Source: Tubiluchus corallicola (lineage: Eukaryota > Animalia > Priapulida). From it: a stretch of 64,000 nt of DNA. Under the pieces are notes generated by a model, which had not been told where the DNA came from, searched no databases, and saw only the letters and a list, made by a program, of their open reading frames with translations. Shown piece by piece: positions 1 to 60,278 of this stretch (its first letter is position 1; every line of letters starts with the position of its first letter). Location of the stretch: contig JAQGDQ010000186.1 in assembly GCA_030141605.1 (NCBI GenBank), positions 186,001-250,000 on the forward strand, read 5' to 3'. The position numbers and the translations under genes were made by a program.

Positions 1-767
1 ACAGTAGGTCTTTAAGTGACTGTTTTTTTTTCGTTGTTTTTGGGCACTTATTCTTTAGGCAAATTTATGTTTCAATTTAATTTTTTTTAATGTAGTTATC
101 CATCGAGTCTCTGTGATAGCGAGTGCTTTTAATTATTCATTTTTGTTTGACACGGTGGTGTATAACAACGTAAGTCATCTTATGTAATGCACAATCTGTT
201 TTTGCAATGCCTATAATAGGTTAATTCTTCCTGTGAGGATTATTAAGGTGCAGAACAGTGGCTGTGTCATCAAAGCAATGTAGCAGACAGTGTGTTAAAA
301 CTGAATTGTTAAAGCTGGCTTGATTCTGTGCATGTAGAGAGCATCACTAACATCCTTAATTTGCTTGTGGTAACAAACAGGTAACTTCAACTGTGTTATT
401 TTACTTTGAAAAATGGGAACAGCACCCGATATAGCAGCATTTTCTTAACCATAAATTAATAATATTAGGTACATGTTCTAATAATTGTATGAATTACTAG
501 TCAAAATAAAATTTTGCATTAATCAGTCAGAATTCTGTGTACTAGGGTTTCAGTACATCACAGTCTTGGTTTGATTTTTATCCGGTTTGATCCGGTTTGC
601 TAAGAAAACGTGATGTTACATATTGTCAACTGGCTTGTCAAGGACAAATATAAGTGAATTGAGGCAAAAAAAATCAGCTCTTTACTCTTGCATTTTTGGT
701 TTGAAATTTGCATTTTGTCATTTGATTTGTGCAAAAAAGGTGACATATCTATGTAATACATTAAATT

Positions 768-817
768 TTTATTACATTACAGCTTGTGCTTATTTCATTC
801 ACTTAGAGCATTTTATT
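768..817 (-). promoter_or_regulatory. Candidate polyadenylation signals of the GBD/FH3 gene
   Basis: Minus-strand AATAAA at 817-812 and 773-768, about 600 nt after the stop codon. The hexamer is frequent in AT-rich DNA. Confidence 0.3.
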
Positions 818-1407
818 TATAATATTAGACATGTCTTTGTAAAGAACATCTATTTTTCCATTTATGGGAAACAATCTTTTACATAACCTTCATTTCATGG
901 ACAATTTTGTCTAAACATGTGGTAAATCAGTGGCACAATGAAATACATTGTGCAGTGTACATGAGAGTAGCATTTGTAAGCAGAATATACCAATTGTAGT
1001 CAGTCTTGCACACTATGAGGGTATACAGTACATCGTTTAATTACTGTAATTTACTAAAATTGGTAATAGTATGATACATAGTATTGAGAAATATATATTA
1101 CTCTTGTTAGCAAATACATGAATAAAATATTGTATGAATAAACTATTTGCATAATCTAGTTTTCACAAAAACAAAACATAGCTTGAGCTAAACAATACTA
1201 TACACTGTACATCTGCATTGTAACAACTATTACTAAATAATTGGCATCCACTACTTAAAACACTGTGATCATACTTTTGCAGTAATGTGGAGCATTGTAA
1301 AAACAGTTAATCTAGAAAATTTTATAGAGTTGCAAGTGTGTAAAGATTTTAAAACTATCACTGAAAAAACACTTTTTGATAAATAATTTTTACATGATTA
1401 ATTAATG

Positions 1408-38767
<37,360 letters not shown>

Positions 38768-51713: not shown

Positions 51714-51825
<112 letters not shown>

Positions 51826-52487: not shown

Positions 52488-54792
52488 GACTTACTTTTGA
52501 ATGCCTCGATCCTAATTCACTTAATCAGACGCACCTTTCAGGTAAAAATTAAATCAAAATAAGATACCGTCTTATTGACTCTATAATTTAAATTGCACAC
52601 ATTTTTAGGATACCAAGTTTCAGCTGCCTTTGGCGTCTGTTATGACCCCAACACCTCCCCTCATTCTCTCGGTGTGTAATAGTTATACTAGAATAGTATG
52701 TGCGAGTCATGAGCAAAAATGTTACATTTTTAAATGTAAGACCTTGATCTAAATCTCAGATAGTTTATAACGTGTAATGACATGTAACATTCCAAAATCA
52801 TCCTGCATCTCAACTTACTGCTACATAGAGTGATCTTCTGAGCTCCCTTTGACCTCCAACACGACATGGCGTGAAGATGAGCTTTTTTGCATTTTCGTCA
52901 AGATGAACTTGTCAACTTTAACCTAAATTTATAAACTCACGAACTCCGTTTTAGTTTCGTTGATAAATTTTTTGACTAATATTATCCGCCTGCACATTAA
53001 GCGGCATAAGAATTAGCCTAACGTTGAGAAGAAAGTAGCGCTGAAGACTTTCACATAACCAAGACTTGAACCCAGAAACGTGCGCTTTCAAAACGAGTTT
53101 GTAATGACTTATATGTGTTACAGTGTGCGTTAGCTAAATTCACAATTCATATAGTTTTTAAACAGCTTGTACTGTACTAATTAGAGTACATTATAATCTC
53201 TACTGCAAATCTAGCGAAAGGTGTTAGAGTTTTAAATCACCAATCCGCATTCTTGTGCATTCACAGCTATATTCAAGTGTTCTCTATTGTTTGATTCATA
53301 ATTGCCTTTTCGTAAACACATTGTGCATGTTTGACATAAATTTTAAATACATGTACGTAATATTTTTTGTGATTATTAACTAACTAAACTGTTGGTGTTC
53401 TCACTTCCACTCTATAAACAGGTTTTACTAATCTAACAAAGTAATTGGAACACCCCAACCAAAGAGCTACATTATGAGACTTGGTGCAACAATTTGTCAG
53501 CACGAAATTCAAAAATCTCAAAACGTGTTTGTGACATAGTTATAGCCTGGGTCTGCTGATCTTACCCAGTAAAGCTTTTTCTTCGCGTCCACAACCATGC
53601 TGAATTCGTTTAAGCTTAATTTTAATTATTCAAATAGTTTCACGTTGAAGTTGAACGAGATCATGAAGTCAGAAATTCCAGCAGAGCAAAAATTTGAGAT
53701 CGTTGTAGCATTTCGCAGCAAATTGTCAAAGTCTGTCAGACAGAACGAATATTCCTGGGCCGAGTGACGTTGACCTATTTCTTCCTAGTGCCTATGACCT
53801 AGTCCCTTCTATCTGCTTCCCTACCAAATTTCATTGAACCAGCTTTACAATTGCTGGAGAAGTGGAACTACGAAGAAACAACAAGAATAATAATTAATAA
53901 GCATAAAAAATAACAAACCCGACTGAACTCAACATGTCACTCACTCGTAGAAGTAAATGATGAAAACATCCAAAAAGGTCTTACCCAGTTTTTTTCGTAA
54001 GCTTGAGAGTTTATAGATTTACGTTTTGATCCCAATCGTCCTATTGACAGTTGGTCTCCTAAATCCAGAAATTTCAAGACTCTGGCATCGAACGTCTTGA
54101 TAAAATCAAAAATACCGTCAGAAGAGACGACTTTGTCTTCTGAAAAATCCATTCCAAGAAATAGTGCACTCTAGTTTTCGCTTGAGATTTACAACAGACA
54201 AAAAGGTTCAAGTACACACAAAACACAATATTTGACTTCGCACGTGTTACGAGATCACATTTTGTGCGAATTCTCAGCAAACATTACCATAAAAAACACT
54301 AGTTCACGAGAACGAAAAATTACTTCTAAACTACATAAATATTTCTCTGTGCGTGTTCTAAATGACTCTACCGTTAGTCAATCGGTAGGAGCCAATTTTC
54401 AGATTCTGTTCACGACTTGTGTTGAATATGAATTCGCCATTGACTTAGCCAGCAATGAGCATAGCTGTTGTTGGTCCAGTGAAGCGATAAATTGTATAGT
54501 TACAACCAAACAATACCAGGTGTAATGGAGGTAACGTTTATACATTATAGTGAGTAACAACAATCTGGAGATTTAGAAAAAACTGTTTGCTAGTGAAACA
54601 TAGAAAACAATGGATGCGTGTTATGTGTACAATGAAGCAATTTAAAATCAGGAATTGATACTGGTAAAAAATTCGCGGTCAGGGGCGCTTAAGCACATGA
54701 ATAATACTAAGATTTGACCGATAAGCTAAACGCGCAGTAATTTTAACGATTTTACCGTATTTCATAGGAAGTAGAAAGCAATTAGTAAAAAC

Positions 54793-55043
54793 ATAATTAC
54801 ATGGTAAAGGCAAATTAATTTTCAAAGGTAATTTGTTTGCATATCAATTTAATTACAAATAAAACAGTGTTCTTCTTTTAAAAAATAAGTTTTGATATGT
54901 AAAACCACAAACTTTTTTACATTAAACGTTTTTTCTCTAAAGCAATTATGAAACGCACTAACTTCAACACGGCTAAGTAATATTGTATTCGAGAAAAAGC
55001 AGCTAACTACTAGACTGAGTATATTTTGTCTAATTTATTATTA
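54793..55043 (+). repeat. Left copy of 251-bp direct repeat (putative target-site duplication)
   Basis: ATAATTACATGGTAAAGG...GTCTAATTTATTATTA matches 56756-57006 at constant offset 1963, with the single mismatch A54911/G56874. Confidence 0.95.
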
Positions 55044-56459
55044 GGCTCAAAACATGGCATGGGAGTTTTGCTGGAGACAGCCAATGGCTTCTTCACGAAA
55101 CGAGGCATGGCTTTAAACGCCAACAAATGCAAAGCCATGAGACTAGTCAAGGCATACCGGCGAAAGGCTATGAAAGTGCTAATAGAACCCACATGGGAGA
55201 TCAGCCAGACTCCTATTCCAATGCTGGGAGTCAGTGACGCATACAAATACCTGGGAATTCCTATGACTGCTAAGGGACGACCCACCATGGACACCAAGTC
55301 TCTTAAAGCATGGCTTATAAGAGTGGAAGGGGCACCACTCAAACCTCAACAAAAGGTGGATATGATCAGACAATATGTGATTCCGCGTCTGACATACCAC
55401 TTCCGTATATGTGAGGTTCATATGAATGGCCTCAAGGGAGCAGACAGGCTTATAAGATCAAGCCTAAAACGTATACTTCATATGGCGACGGATGTCCCGA
55501 ATGCATTCTTCTACATGCCAATGAAGAAGGGAGGGCTGGGATTTTCTTGTCTTGAAAAGGATGTTCCTTTGATGAAAGTCAAGATGCTCAGCCGATTGCA
55601 GGCCTCACCAGATCCGCTGGTGAACATGAGTGCATCTGCTCCAGTGTGGAATAGGGAGCTTGCGTGGGCTAAGAGGGTGGCGAGCCTCGAAGCCTACAGT
55701 AACGCAAAAGACATAAATCGTGCAAAAAGGGATAACGATCGCAAACATCTATCGGCATTCAACGGTAAAGTGCATGGGAAGGGTTTTGCAGCCGTGTCTG
55801 CTGACCCACTGAGTACCCATTACCTACGTAGCAGCACACTCCTGAGCGGGGGTGATTATATCTTGGTTCTCAAGATGATCACCAACTCTCTACCAGTTAG
55901 AGTTAACACCACGAGAGGACAACCCAATGCAATCAGGAGATGTCGCAGGTGCGGGAGACATGCAGAGAGTCAGGTTCACGTACTTCAACAGTGCATAACA
56001 GTAAACAATGCCATATCACGAAGGCACAATGCACTGTGCGAGGTGCTCGCCGAAGCCTTGAAGGGGCAGGGCTTTACGGTCGTCAGGGAACCTTGGTTCG
56101 AGATCAACAGAACAAGGTACCACCCAGACATCCTGGCGACCAAAGGTGGTCATACGTACGTTATCGATCCGACCATCTCGGCAGCAGGAAACATCTACTC
56201 GCTTAGGGCCAGGTGCAGGGACAAGGCCCTGAAGTACGAACCGATCCTCGATGCCGTCAAACAGCGGTGCGGCTCTGCCACTGCCTCGTCGCACGGCATC
56301 TGTGTGGGCTTTCGTGGGGAATGGGCAGGAGGAGAGAACGACGTTCTCCTGAAGACACTCGGTCTTCTGAACGTCAGAGCCAAACTAGTCCGCTCGGTGA
56401 TTAGAGGCTCATGTATGGTGTTTAGAAAGTTCCTGGGAAGGCAAAGGAGGGAGACCTAG
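55044..56459 (+). pseudogene. Truncated R2-like ORF (RT C-terminus/thumb, zinc knuckle, restriction-like endonuclease); no YADD catalytic motif
   Basis: ORF track 55026..56459. Its first 6 codons are host (duplicated) DNA. Element sequence starts GSKHGMGVLL, the segment that normally follows YADD. No internal stops or frameshifts. Confidence 0.9.
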
Positions 56460-56755
56460 GTCATCTCCTGCGCAGGATGTCACTCGAGTTCTTACATCCA
56501 AATGTGTGAAAGGTTTATACCTAGGGGAAATCCGACTACTCTATGAGTAGCCGGTGGATACCGTACCTTTACGGTATCGAAAAGGCGAGTTTTGTTGGGT
56601 CTGGAGAAATCCAGTTCCCACGGAATTGACGGATTCCGTATCTTTACGGAAGAATTTGGAATTTGGCAAGTTTGACTCGAGTCAAAAATCACACAGGTGA
56701 ACAGATCCGACGCCTGTGAAATCTGACAAAATAAAATAAAATAAAATAAAATAAA
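55044..56755 (+). mobile_element. 5'-truncated R2-clade (RLE-type) non-LTR retrotransposon, 1712 bp, inserted outside rDNA
   Basis: Sharp rise in GC content. Uninterrupted frame with RT C-terminal motifs (GMALNANKC, YKYLG), R2-type thumb (APLKPQQK..IR.YVIPRL), GGLG, CCHC knuckle (CRRC..ESQVHVLQQC), RHN and endonuclease PD..D..K..KY. A ~270-nt 3' UTR and (TAAAA)n tail (56728-56755) follow. Flanked by a direct duplication. Confidence 0.93.
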
Positions 56756-57006
56756 ATAATTACATGGTAAAGGCAAATTAATTTTCAAAGGTAATTTGTT
56801 TGCATATCAATTTAATTACAAATAAAACAGTGTTCTTCTTTTAAAAAATAAGTTTTGATATGTAAAACCACAAGCTTTTTTACATTAAACGTTTTTTCTC
56901 TAAAGCAATTATGAAACGCACTAACTTCAACACGGCTAAGTAATATTGTATTCGAGAAAAAGCAGCTAACTACTAGACTGAGTATATTTTGTCTAATTTA
57001 TTATTA
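56756..57006 (+). repeat. Right copy of 251-bp direct repeat (putative target-site duplication)
   Basis: Begins directly after the (TAAAA)n tail; 250/251 identical to 54793-55043. Confidence 0.95.
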
Positions 57007-59901
57007 TTCTCGTATCCTCAGTTTATAAATATCGTTTGTAATAACTGAGGCTGCACAGCATAACATGGTAAAATATGACATAGAGGATATAAGTGAACGT
57101 AGATACCATTTTACAAAAATCGCTTGACCTTGTTATTTCTGTTCTTTGGGAGAGAAAATACCTTAATATTGTAATTAGTAAGACTTTTTTGGGTCTAAAA
57201 TTATTTGTTTGAAAGCTTCTAGTACAATTTACTTGTGGTGTGTTACATTATCAGGTTTGGAAGTGACTTATTCAATATGATTTCTATCAAACTTATATGG
57301 TGCATTAAATATCACAAGGCATACGAGCATTACCAGTATGGTCAACAAATCTACTATAATATTTTTGTCTGATAATTGTTTCATCCGTTGCAGTATGTTA
57401 GCAAATTATAAGAAAAAGTCAATAATCGAAGGCTGAATAGAAAAAAAAACGACCAAACAACAGTCTGTCTGCTTTCAGGTGTCCTAACCGTACAGGTAAC
57501 AAATAGCTCACTCAGTAAACGTTCTGATGATTTTCCAGTTTAAGTTTAGGCAACATAAGAAATTTTTCACATAGATCATCTATACTATAGATTCTATAGT
57601 AACAGCAACACCACTCTCCATCACCGCTGCTGCAGTCCTCGCCACTGTAGCTATATGCAGTGCATATATATTAAATAAGTATCTTTTGCAGATCTTTGAG
57701 TCTCTATGATCAGGCTCATAATTATGTTTTACAGCGAATTAGATATAATGACATTACCTAGTAAGTTATAACAGTCTCCATCAATTTAAATTAGCCTTCC
57801 AGTTGAAATGCATCATGAAGTTTATTGGTCAAGTTTGGTTATAGATGCATCTGTATCACTTTATAGATTTTAAGTTGAAGTTTGATTATATCTGACTACT
57901 TTATTAGAACAAGTGACCACACTACTTATGATAAAATTGGTAATGCCTGCGGGCTGAATTGTTACGAAATATCTTTAACATAAACTAATTAGTGCGCAGC
58001 AAAAATAGGAAATGTCATACAAAATAATTCATCGAATGAGGCCAGTTAGTAAATATCACAGTAACTGACTACGTTTTCTGGATTACCTTTAGTCCATAAA
58101 AACTTTTTAAAATATTTATTTACATTTTGAAATCTTTCACAATTGTTTTGGAACGTAGCACTTTATACTTCCATATCCCTTTCGTTCATATAATTATTAC
58201 GGGTATATGACATTTTGCTGATTAGTACTTGGCTGTTGAAAATACATCATGCTGTGAAAACTCAAAGCGTGGTATGCATGATAGTACGGATTAACATAAT
58301 TTTTTTAAATATTACTCAAATGCAATGTCCTTGATAACAAATAGCCTCGTGAATTCGTAGTAAGAAACTGCGCTTTCCCACAACCAACAGTTAGATAGAG
58401 GACACAGGAAAATATTCAAGAATTACTACCCGTGTGAAAGGGAATCAGTAATTTATCTTAAAATTTTAAGCAGTTCCTTCGAATTGCAATTGCTGTGATC
58501 TCGCAATTACCAGTCTTGCTACGGCAGCATCACTATTATTTCATTCTTTGTACCTGGTTTTTCTGAGTGTACAAATTTGCTAAAACGTAGAGGCGCTTTA
58601 AGGATTATCGCCGCACAATGCCTTTGAGAAAACAACATTATTAGACGTACTTAAAAGTTGTCGCAAAGGCAGGACCTGGCGCAATGTTTTTCAATGTTTA
58701 ACCGTTCAAAGCAACAAACTGCCTTATCAAAACAATTTATTTTACTCGCTCATTTGACTTAAAGATTACCAAGCAACAAAAACTCTAAAGATTTGGCGTA
58801 AAAATGTTTCAGTGTGACATTTATGGATTACAGATCTAGCGTGTCAAAAATCGTCTTTGCTCAACGTCTGCTGTTGAAGTACATTTGTAAAAAAGCAAGT
58901 TGCTTACCCTTCAGTATTTTTCAGTCTGCTTCCTGTTTACGAAAACCAGTATTTAGACAAATTTCATCAATGACGGATCCTAAATTTTATTTACTATCAC
59001 TATCAACTGAGCGTCAATTTATGAAATTACTTCTTGGTCAACAATGGTGACTCTGACGACATACGTTTATTGTTTGCCTGTTGTGTACACGAATGTAATT
59101 GTTGTAACGTGCACAGAATATAACGACGCTATGCATCCGTAGCATCACTAATATTTACAAATACATCATTGTCGTAAGCCTAATTCAATAAGACAATGAT
59201 GTAGTTTTAGGTACTTGTATTCAGCAGGTGGTGTGCCAGAGCTATGCAGAACTTGTTTAAACCACATTCTTATCTTTCTATCACTATTATTCATACACTC
59301 TTCAGACATTCAGACAACTAGACAGACATTCATGCATTTATTGTCGGTTGGAACATCTGTTCGTATCTCTGACCAACTGACCTGCGGAACAAAAGATCAA
59401 AATAAAATTCATTCACAAAGAGCTTTTGACCAACGGTTTTGCTATTAATAACAATAGCACAGGCAGATTGACAGACAGACAAACTGTCATTAATGTAGTC
59501 GCTAGGCTTATTGATTAAACTGTTCAAAAATATATTATGACGCTTAATTTTGAGTTTATTTCATTATTAGTTGACAACATTGTAACTTATATTATAAACA
59601 ATAACAGCAAGTGCTGCTGTAACATTAACTGTGTGAAAATGCTGAATTCATTAAATAGCCGACCTTCGTTATGTATTTTTGTTAACGACTAATAAATAAC
59701 TTCTCATTCCATTGAAAAATACTGGAGATAAATCTCTGGTCACCCAAAACAACAATAGGTTTGTCAAATTAATTGTCTTTTTCGTCAAATGTTAAATGTA
59801 CTGAATTTATAGTTCATCATACCCAATCGTGTGTCTCACAATGTGCGAGTTTAGCAGTCTCTTTCAACGCACCTGATCACTTAAACGCTTGGGTATCTAC
59901 T

Positions 59902-60278
59902 CATTTCGCCATTTGACAGTTCACCAGCAGTACGTTTCGCCCGTGGTACAATTTGCCAATGGCACATTTCGCCAGAGGTAATTCTCACCAGTGGTATGTT
60001 TTGTCAGTGGTGCACTTTGCTAGTGTCCCAGTTCACCAGTAGTACATTTCGGCAATGGTATATTTTGGCAGTACAGATTTCGCCAGTAAAATCTCTCTGC
60101 CATATTCCCTTTTATTTGCCTTTCTATTTAACAAATGTTTCGTTTCGCTAGTGGTACACTGACAATCACTAATGAACTGTATCACTGCAAATGTACCATT
60201 GGCGAAATATACGACTGATGAAATGTGCCACGTGGCGAAATGTACTACTGAAGGATTGTGCACTAGCGATGTAACGTG
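59902..60278. repeat. Degenerate 16-bp tandem array (consensus ~CATTTCGCCAGTGGTA) followed by inverted copies; foldback-like element relic
   Basis: About 12 forward units at 59902-60087, one at ~60141, and about 6-7 reverse-complement units (e.g. TACCATTGGCGAAAT, GTGGCGAAATG) at 60167-60278. Confidence 0.7.

Follow-up and report, generated by a model that had tools for sequence, protein, structure and literature searches.

How non-LTR retrotransposons make their second-strand break is named as an open question in the Discussion of a study of avian R2, which points to R9 (PMC13486585). R9 of Adineta vaga is an rDNA-specific R2 derivative and, as related in papers that cite it, leaves a 126-bp duplication (PMC13486585, PMC6895275, PMC9977147). 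The original prediction for the locus described here had named R9 as the notable exception with a long duplication, but R9 is not the only precedent: Dualen-4b, crippled avian R2 and some L1 insertions leave longer duplications of variable length. More than half of the de novo insertions of Dualen-4b_cRei in Chlamydomonas are reported to carry duplications of >50 bp, with a median of 900 bp (PMC9977147), and L1 duplications of >100 bp arise in up to 10% of events in HeLa cells and, for three lines deficient in NER, in 4 of 7, 21 of 23 and 22 of 28 (PMC5223499). In avian R2, the substitutions E1040Q and K1052A, singly or combined, move the 5′ ends of insertions towards heterogeneous ~1-kb duplications, and the junctions are of an end-joining type (PMC13486585).

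R2-type proteins are also known outside rDNA, among them R2NS-1_SMed, R2NS-1_CSi, BLAG 1-6 of Blattella and R2-homologous elements of sponges (PMC5035012, PMC7650587, PMC13188248), with further non-rDNA R2-like families described elsewhere (PMC13580325). Term searches of the main texts of the first three papers returned no duplication lengths for the R2NS, BLAG and sponge elements. Most subscription papers and Repbase notes lay outside the literature searched, in which we found no natural non-rDNA R2-like family with a ~250-bp duplication. C. elegans RTE-1 is said to carry a flanking repeat of ~200 bp; a literature search did not confirm this, and we do not use it as evidence.

We analysed a 64-kb stretch of DNA, the window, in which a young, 5′-truncated copy of a dispersed R2-like retrotransposon lies between the two copies of a 251-nt direct repeat of host-like DNA. 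We take the element to be a new R2-like family member that bears a single long scar of known type. A 251-bp duplication is not a record, longer ones being in print for other LINEs; a long duplication is unusual, yet an already described outcome. Like the R2NS, BLAG and sponge elements as described in print, the element has an R2-type protein and is inserted outside rDNA. It shares with R9 an R2 derivation and a long duplication, but R9 is rDNA-specific, whereas the window site is non-rDNA, its duplication is twice as long and a single length was measured. As in Dualen-4b, an RLE-bearing LINE is associated with long duplication; Dualen, however, also has an APE endonuclease, which its authors suggest as the cause (PMC9977147), whereas the relatives of the window element have R2 architecture.

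Anatomy of the repeat and the insert

Self-comparison of the window returned an ungapped direct repeat of 251 nt, identical at 250 of 251 positions, and outside both copies sequence identity drops sharply. The features of the locus are as follows.

54793–55043, + strand: repeat copy 1 (upstream) of the putative target-site duplication; position 54911 is A; final base common to the element (1-nt microhomology)
55044–56459, + strand: 5′-truncated open reading frame with the end of the RT, thumb, linker, CCHC knuckle and restriction-like endonuclease; 471 codons plus stop, no internal stop
55941–55994, + strand: CCHC zinc knuckle; C300, C303, H312 and C317 of the 471-aa frame
56022–56237, + strand: restriction-like endonuclease core (RH, E, PD, D, K..KY), from alignment to 9nl3 and 8gh6
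56088–56090, 56127–56129 and 56166–56168, + strand: endonuclease acidic residues E (avian E1040), D (avian D1054) and D (avian D1067); numbering checked against PMC13486585
56121–56123, + strand: His codon at the avian R2 K1052 position, from alignment to 9nl3
56460–56727, + strand: 3′ UTR of 268 nt, a strongly structured multi-hairpin RNA (z −4.58; 0 of 200 shuffles as stable)
56728–56755, + strand: (AAAAT)n tail; TRF array 56728–56759, 6.4 copies
56756–57006, + strand: repeat copy 2 (downstream) of the putative target-site duplication; position 56874 is G

The A of copy 1 against the G of copy 2 is the sole mismatch between the copies. GC content is 24.7% in the repeat versus 49.1% in the 1712-bp insert (55044–56755), which the repeat copies bound precisely, one at the truncation point and the other at the tail; a 250/251 match placed in this way at both element ends is far beyond chance. 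The original prediction of a bracketing 251-bp repeat without indels is borne out, as is that of a 1712-bp R2-like element, which has a stop-free frame and Bombyx R2 (R2Bm; 8gh6, E = 5e-43) as its best solved-structure match. The 64-kb window holds no third full copy of the repeat, the sole extra match being 36 nt at 83%. A hairpin in the repeat was considered and rejected, as its folding is not more stable than that of shuffled sequences (z 0.63). The 3′ UTR holds several near-perfect hairpins and has no Rfam match at E ≤ 1.

We compared positions 53500–58500 with four runs (X1–X4), taken as assembled short-read contigs (k = 31); X1–X3 come from a single sample, possibly the one that was assembled, and X4 is the sole independent sample compared. 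Longer copies of the element, seen in X1, X3 and X4 as loose ends before 55043, align through 55043 and then encode the RT catalytic motif that the window copy is missing. It follows that 1 nt at the 5′ junction is common to repeat and element, and that the element was cut directly after this motif. At the other end, the AAAAT phase of the tail extends 4 nt into repeat copy 2, to 56759. Given these two microhomologies, the stagger or duplication comes to 246–251 bp. The repeat is best read as a real, long target-site duplication; that much of the earlier claim stands, with its 251 bp restated as this range.

The family is multi-copy with diverged subfamilies: depth over the element in X1 is 2,500–8,600, versus 170–194 in the flanks. 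Among the 24 loose ends listed (114 in total), 2 join the element to other AT-rich DNA (X2 at 56234 and X3 at 56127). Dating the duplication by private letters was tried and rejected, the X1 letters at 56398, 56503 and 56480 recurring in other X2 or X3 contigs. At 56237–56345, in the endonuclease region, each of the four runs also has a copy with 27 other letters in place of 107 nt, for the most part at roughly single-copy depth; this is an older copy common to both samples.

Relationship to R2 and the insertion site

All five solved-structure matches of the window protein were R2 proteins, and the alignment to R2 structures spans residues 8–473 of a 481-aa frame (RT-thumb, CCHC knuckle and PD-D-K endonuclease). 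The R2-superclade feature of a C-terminal CCHC knuckle and a PD-(D/E)xK restriction-like endonuclease after the RT is present with intact knuckle and endonuclease motifs; a Pfam zf-RVT match on the knuckle reached E = 0.0036, below the Pfam cut-off. With R2 (R2Bm 8gh6, avian R2 9nl3 and 9dou), the element shares these domains, a structured 3′ UTR and 5′ truncation, but it lies outside 28S, ends in a simple-repeat tail and has His at the K1052 position. Its duplication of hundreds of bases also differs from the small deletion or short duplication of R2.

HMMER found 3147 relatives at E ≤ 0.001, the best 150 of the 3147 all being ≤36% identical, and word-index protein searches gave 3, 3 and 1 distant matches. 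A metagenome scan with the window protein confirmed none of 44 candidates; one with a three-protein alignment confirmed 3 of 550, all distant (28–35%), and self-BLAST of these three loci returned no direct repeat. One of the three, the metagenome contig L003, carries at 1–4374 an apparently full-length canonical R2 that has 28S flanks and whose residue equivalent to K1052 is K.

In a quick tree of 58 rows (the window protein, two loci, P0001–P0005 and 50 of the top 52 representatives, with P0008 and P0022 omitted), the window protein falls in an unnamed set of 20 rows with an SH-aLRT of 96, separate from the set with the tree's one 28S-anchored R2 (L003). It is split at SH-aLRT 100 from the distant RLE proteins P0002, P0003 and P0005, which we take to be 'HERO-like'; the tree has no named NeSL, Utopia or R4. 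On these alignments, the element is closer to R2 than to other RLE groups among the tree rows and structure matches. Several full-length relatives in its tree set have N-terminal zinc fingers; the window copy's own N-terminus is missing through truncation. The strict Myb pattern occurs in 1 of 20 proteins of or tied to this set (relatives 30–36% identical), and a Myb-like stretch is visible by eye in P0011, P0015, P0017 and P0158, with the N-terminus of P0011 aligning to avian R2. One of the omitted proteins, P0008, has 2328 aa and six stretches matching the R2 C-terminal half, and is possibly a mis-joined gene model.

The whole 64-kb window gave no Rfam matches, and the 28S target halves taken from L003 agree with the insertion site at 13–15 of 30 positions, no better than with random window stretches. 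The insertion site is not rDNA. The element is thus R2-like but non-rDNA, and does not count as a canonical R2.

Read contigs and the origin of the duplication

One X2 contig leads out of the left flank, across the repeat and on for 29 nt of the element, short of the tool's 31-nt bridging bar; because it enters the element, 31-mers across the 5′ junction exist in the reads. The X1 contig over the repeat has 446 nt, of which 430 align: left flank, repeat and then 16 unaligned letters that, judged by lengths, most likely exit into the right flank. As proof of an empty allele this contig was rejected, since the repeat is longer than k and a k = 31 graph yields the same contig with or without the insertion. 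Contig depth, which by the tool's own warning is not equal to copy number, is 216.4 over the repeat in X1 versus 194.1, 178.3 and 170.4 in the flanks (ratios 1.11–1.27). In a k-mer model, an empty site would have a repeat-to-flank ratio of 1.00, and an insertion with both copies one of 1.23 if heterozygous or 1.46 if homozygous; the X1 values weakly fit a heterozygous insertion with both repeat copies. In X2, the repeat contig shows no excess (5.09 versus 4.71–6.09). X4 is without a contig over the repeat and the share of X5 is zero; neither counts as evidence. The tail-to-repeat junction falls in 56720–56767, skipped as repeat, and no contig spans the whole element. Both X1 and X2 read G at the mismatch, with A at 54911 in none of the read contigs, and none of the seven joints listed goes back from the end of the repeat to its start.

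We think it probable that the duplication was made in the insertion itself, no second-strand nick having been placed near the first and joining having occurred at a distant, probably incidental break. The bottom strand would have been nicked at 54792–54797, and the freed end could have paired with 4 nt of the RNA tail to prime the cDNA. Synthesis would have halted after ~1.7 kb, the cDNA end would have been joined through the 1-nt microhomology to a top-strand break 246–251 nt downstream, and host repair would have filled in the stretch between the two breaks. The duplication length would then be set by the chance place of the distant break, so that sister copies are expected to show a spread of lengths and not a peak at 250.

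Precedents of variable length (Dualen-4b, the avian R2 variants and L1) likewise suggest a second break that is far off and variable in place, not one set by a ruler. They argue against a fixed long-range stagger, the mechanism put forward in the original prediction, in which the protein itself would nick the second strand ~250 bp downstream at every insertion, as is reported for R9 at 126 bp. The element is R2-like, and R9, an R2 derivative, is reported with its 126-bp duplication, both of which fit such a stagger; yet R9 is site-specific in rDNA and the window site has no rDNA likeness, the repeat structure holds no hint of a ruler, and the one insertion measured is a single copy, from which a family habit cannot be read. 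We consider a fixed stagger very unlikely. Had the assembly instead merged haplotypes or two insertions 251 bp apart, no molecule would carry both repeat copies and the A/G mismatch would be allelic. The lack of a contig over the whole structure, the unseen tail junction, the G-only read contigs and the inferred fit by length of the 16 X1 letters to the right flank are all in keeping with such an artefact, but the graph gives that X1 contig either way, X1 depth over the repeat is above the flanks and not at or below them, and the 5′ junction is present in X2 reads. It would also be improbable a priori for a dispersed family to have inserted once in each of two haplotypes at points 251 bp apart, and an artefact seems to us quite unlikely.

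Repair offers a further source for the second copy: with an ordinary short scar, a template switch at the 4-nt tail microhomology, in the course of integration or shortly afterwards, could have recopied 251 bp from the empty homologue or the sister chromatid. The microhomology is there, and copy 2 has the G of the read contigs where copy 1 has A, as expected if the copies stem from different homologues. The same 4-nt match is, however, needed for priming, one later mutation or fill-in error explains the mismatch, and collapsed contigs give no phase; we regard this course as unlikely. Finally, a tandem 251-bp duplication could have preceded the element, which then landed at its junction. Data that lack an empty allele are compatible with this, but it requires a landing exact to the base and the joints listed include none going back, making it the least credible course, with hardly any weight. 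Insertion with joining at a distant, incidental break thus stays our preferred account.

The K1052 position of the endonuclease

In the alignment to 9nl3, counted from residue 1034, avian E1040, D1054 and D1067 fall on the conserved E, D and D of the window protein, and the same count aligns avian K1052 to its His. A single-sequence AlphaFold model was unusable (pLDDT 39.9), so the equivalence rests on sequence alignment. K1052 of avian R2 is a loop residue needed for second-strand nicking, and K1052A is one of two substitutions that selectively cripple it (PMC13486585). Across 147 of the 149 aligned representatives (two rows are without the column, and P0008 was omitted), this position, two residues before the catalytic Asp, is K in 93, R in 26 and another residue in 28, with His in 1 of the 147. 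A sister copy in X3 (loose end behind 56118) reads Tyr there. None of the 40 variant rows covered, out of 180 listed, lies at 56121 or 56122, so His seems to be the common state.

With His (Tyr in the sister copy) where avian R2 has the loop K1052, the family as a whole may nick the second strand weakly, a lead taken from the aligned residues. The avian variants resemble this locus in that loss of the nearby second nick leads to large, heterogeneous duplications and the window protein is non-wild-type at K1052; they differ in being engineered, in human rDNA and with duplications of ~1 kb, whereas the window protein has His and keeps E1040. That E1040, the partner residue of K1052, is kept tells against the lead, and it was the E1040Q/K1052A double mutant that had the strongest effect in the avian R2 study (PMC13486585). 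It also counts against the lead that 28 of 147 relatives are likewise without K or R, making the substitution uncommon, not rare. His at K1052 is absent from the avian R2 variants reported in the sections consulted of that study, where the tested residue was Ala (PMC13486585), and the sections consulted of PMC4838377 contain no test of this lysine.

Taken further, and with considerable doubt, a recently active R2-like lineage might have left rDNA, largely lost its own second nick through His or Tyr at K1052, and come routinely to duplicate hundreds of host bases at incidental distant breaks. If true, such a nick-deficient lineage would be the natural equivalent of avian R2 engineered to be nicking-deficient. 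Since the family is young and multi-copy, has its endonuclease intact and is naturally altered at a nick-uncoupling residue, duplication lengths in the genome could test whether loss of the second nick leads to long duplications in nature. What is learnt from the family would also bear on R2-based tools for gene insertion, in which long duplications are unwanted. A duplication that happened only this once would be an ordinary, rare tail event of known kind.

The rest of the window gave several minor observations. At 5251–5475 on the − strand lies an exon with a weak match to formin FH3 (PF06367, E = 0.00024, below the cut-off), with more exons probably at ~1400–10200. On this weak match, the formin-like exon points to a spliced eukaryotic host gene, and there is no sign of that gene reaching the insertion site. 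The stretches at 9621–9700, 8505–8646, 10553–10730, 33553–33674 and 51714–51825 comprise an 80-bp palindrome built around a run of TA, together with long microsatellites of ATA, AG, CT and TAT. A degenerate array with a 16-bp period (59917–60070 and 60189–60261) has an inverted partner ~190–260 nt off, and the two could be subterminal repeats of a small non-autonomous DNA element. In X2 and X3, the stretch 58017–58056 has loose ends to its left and right, which suggests that this 40-bp piece is repeated elsewhere in the genome.
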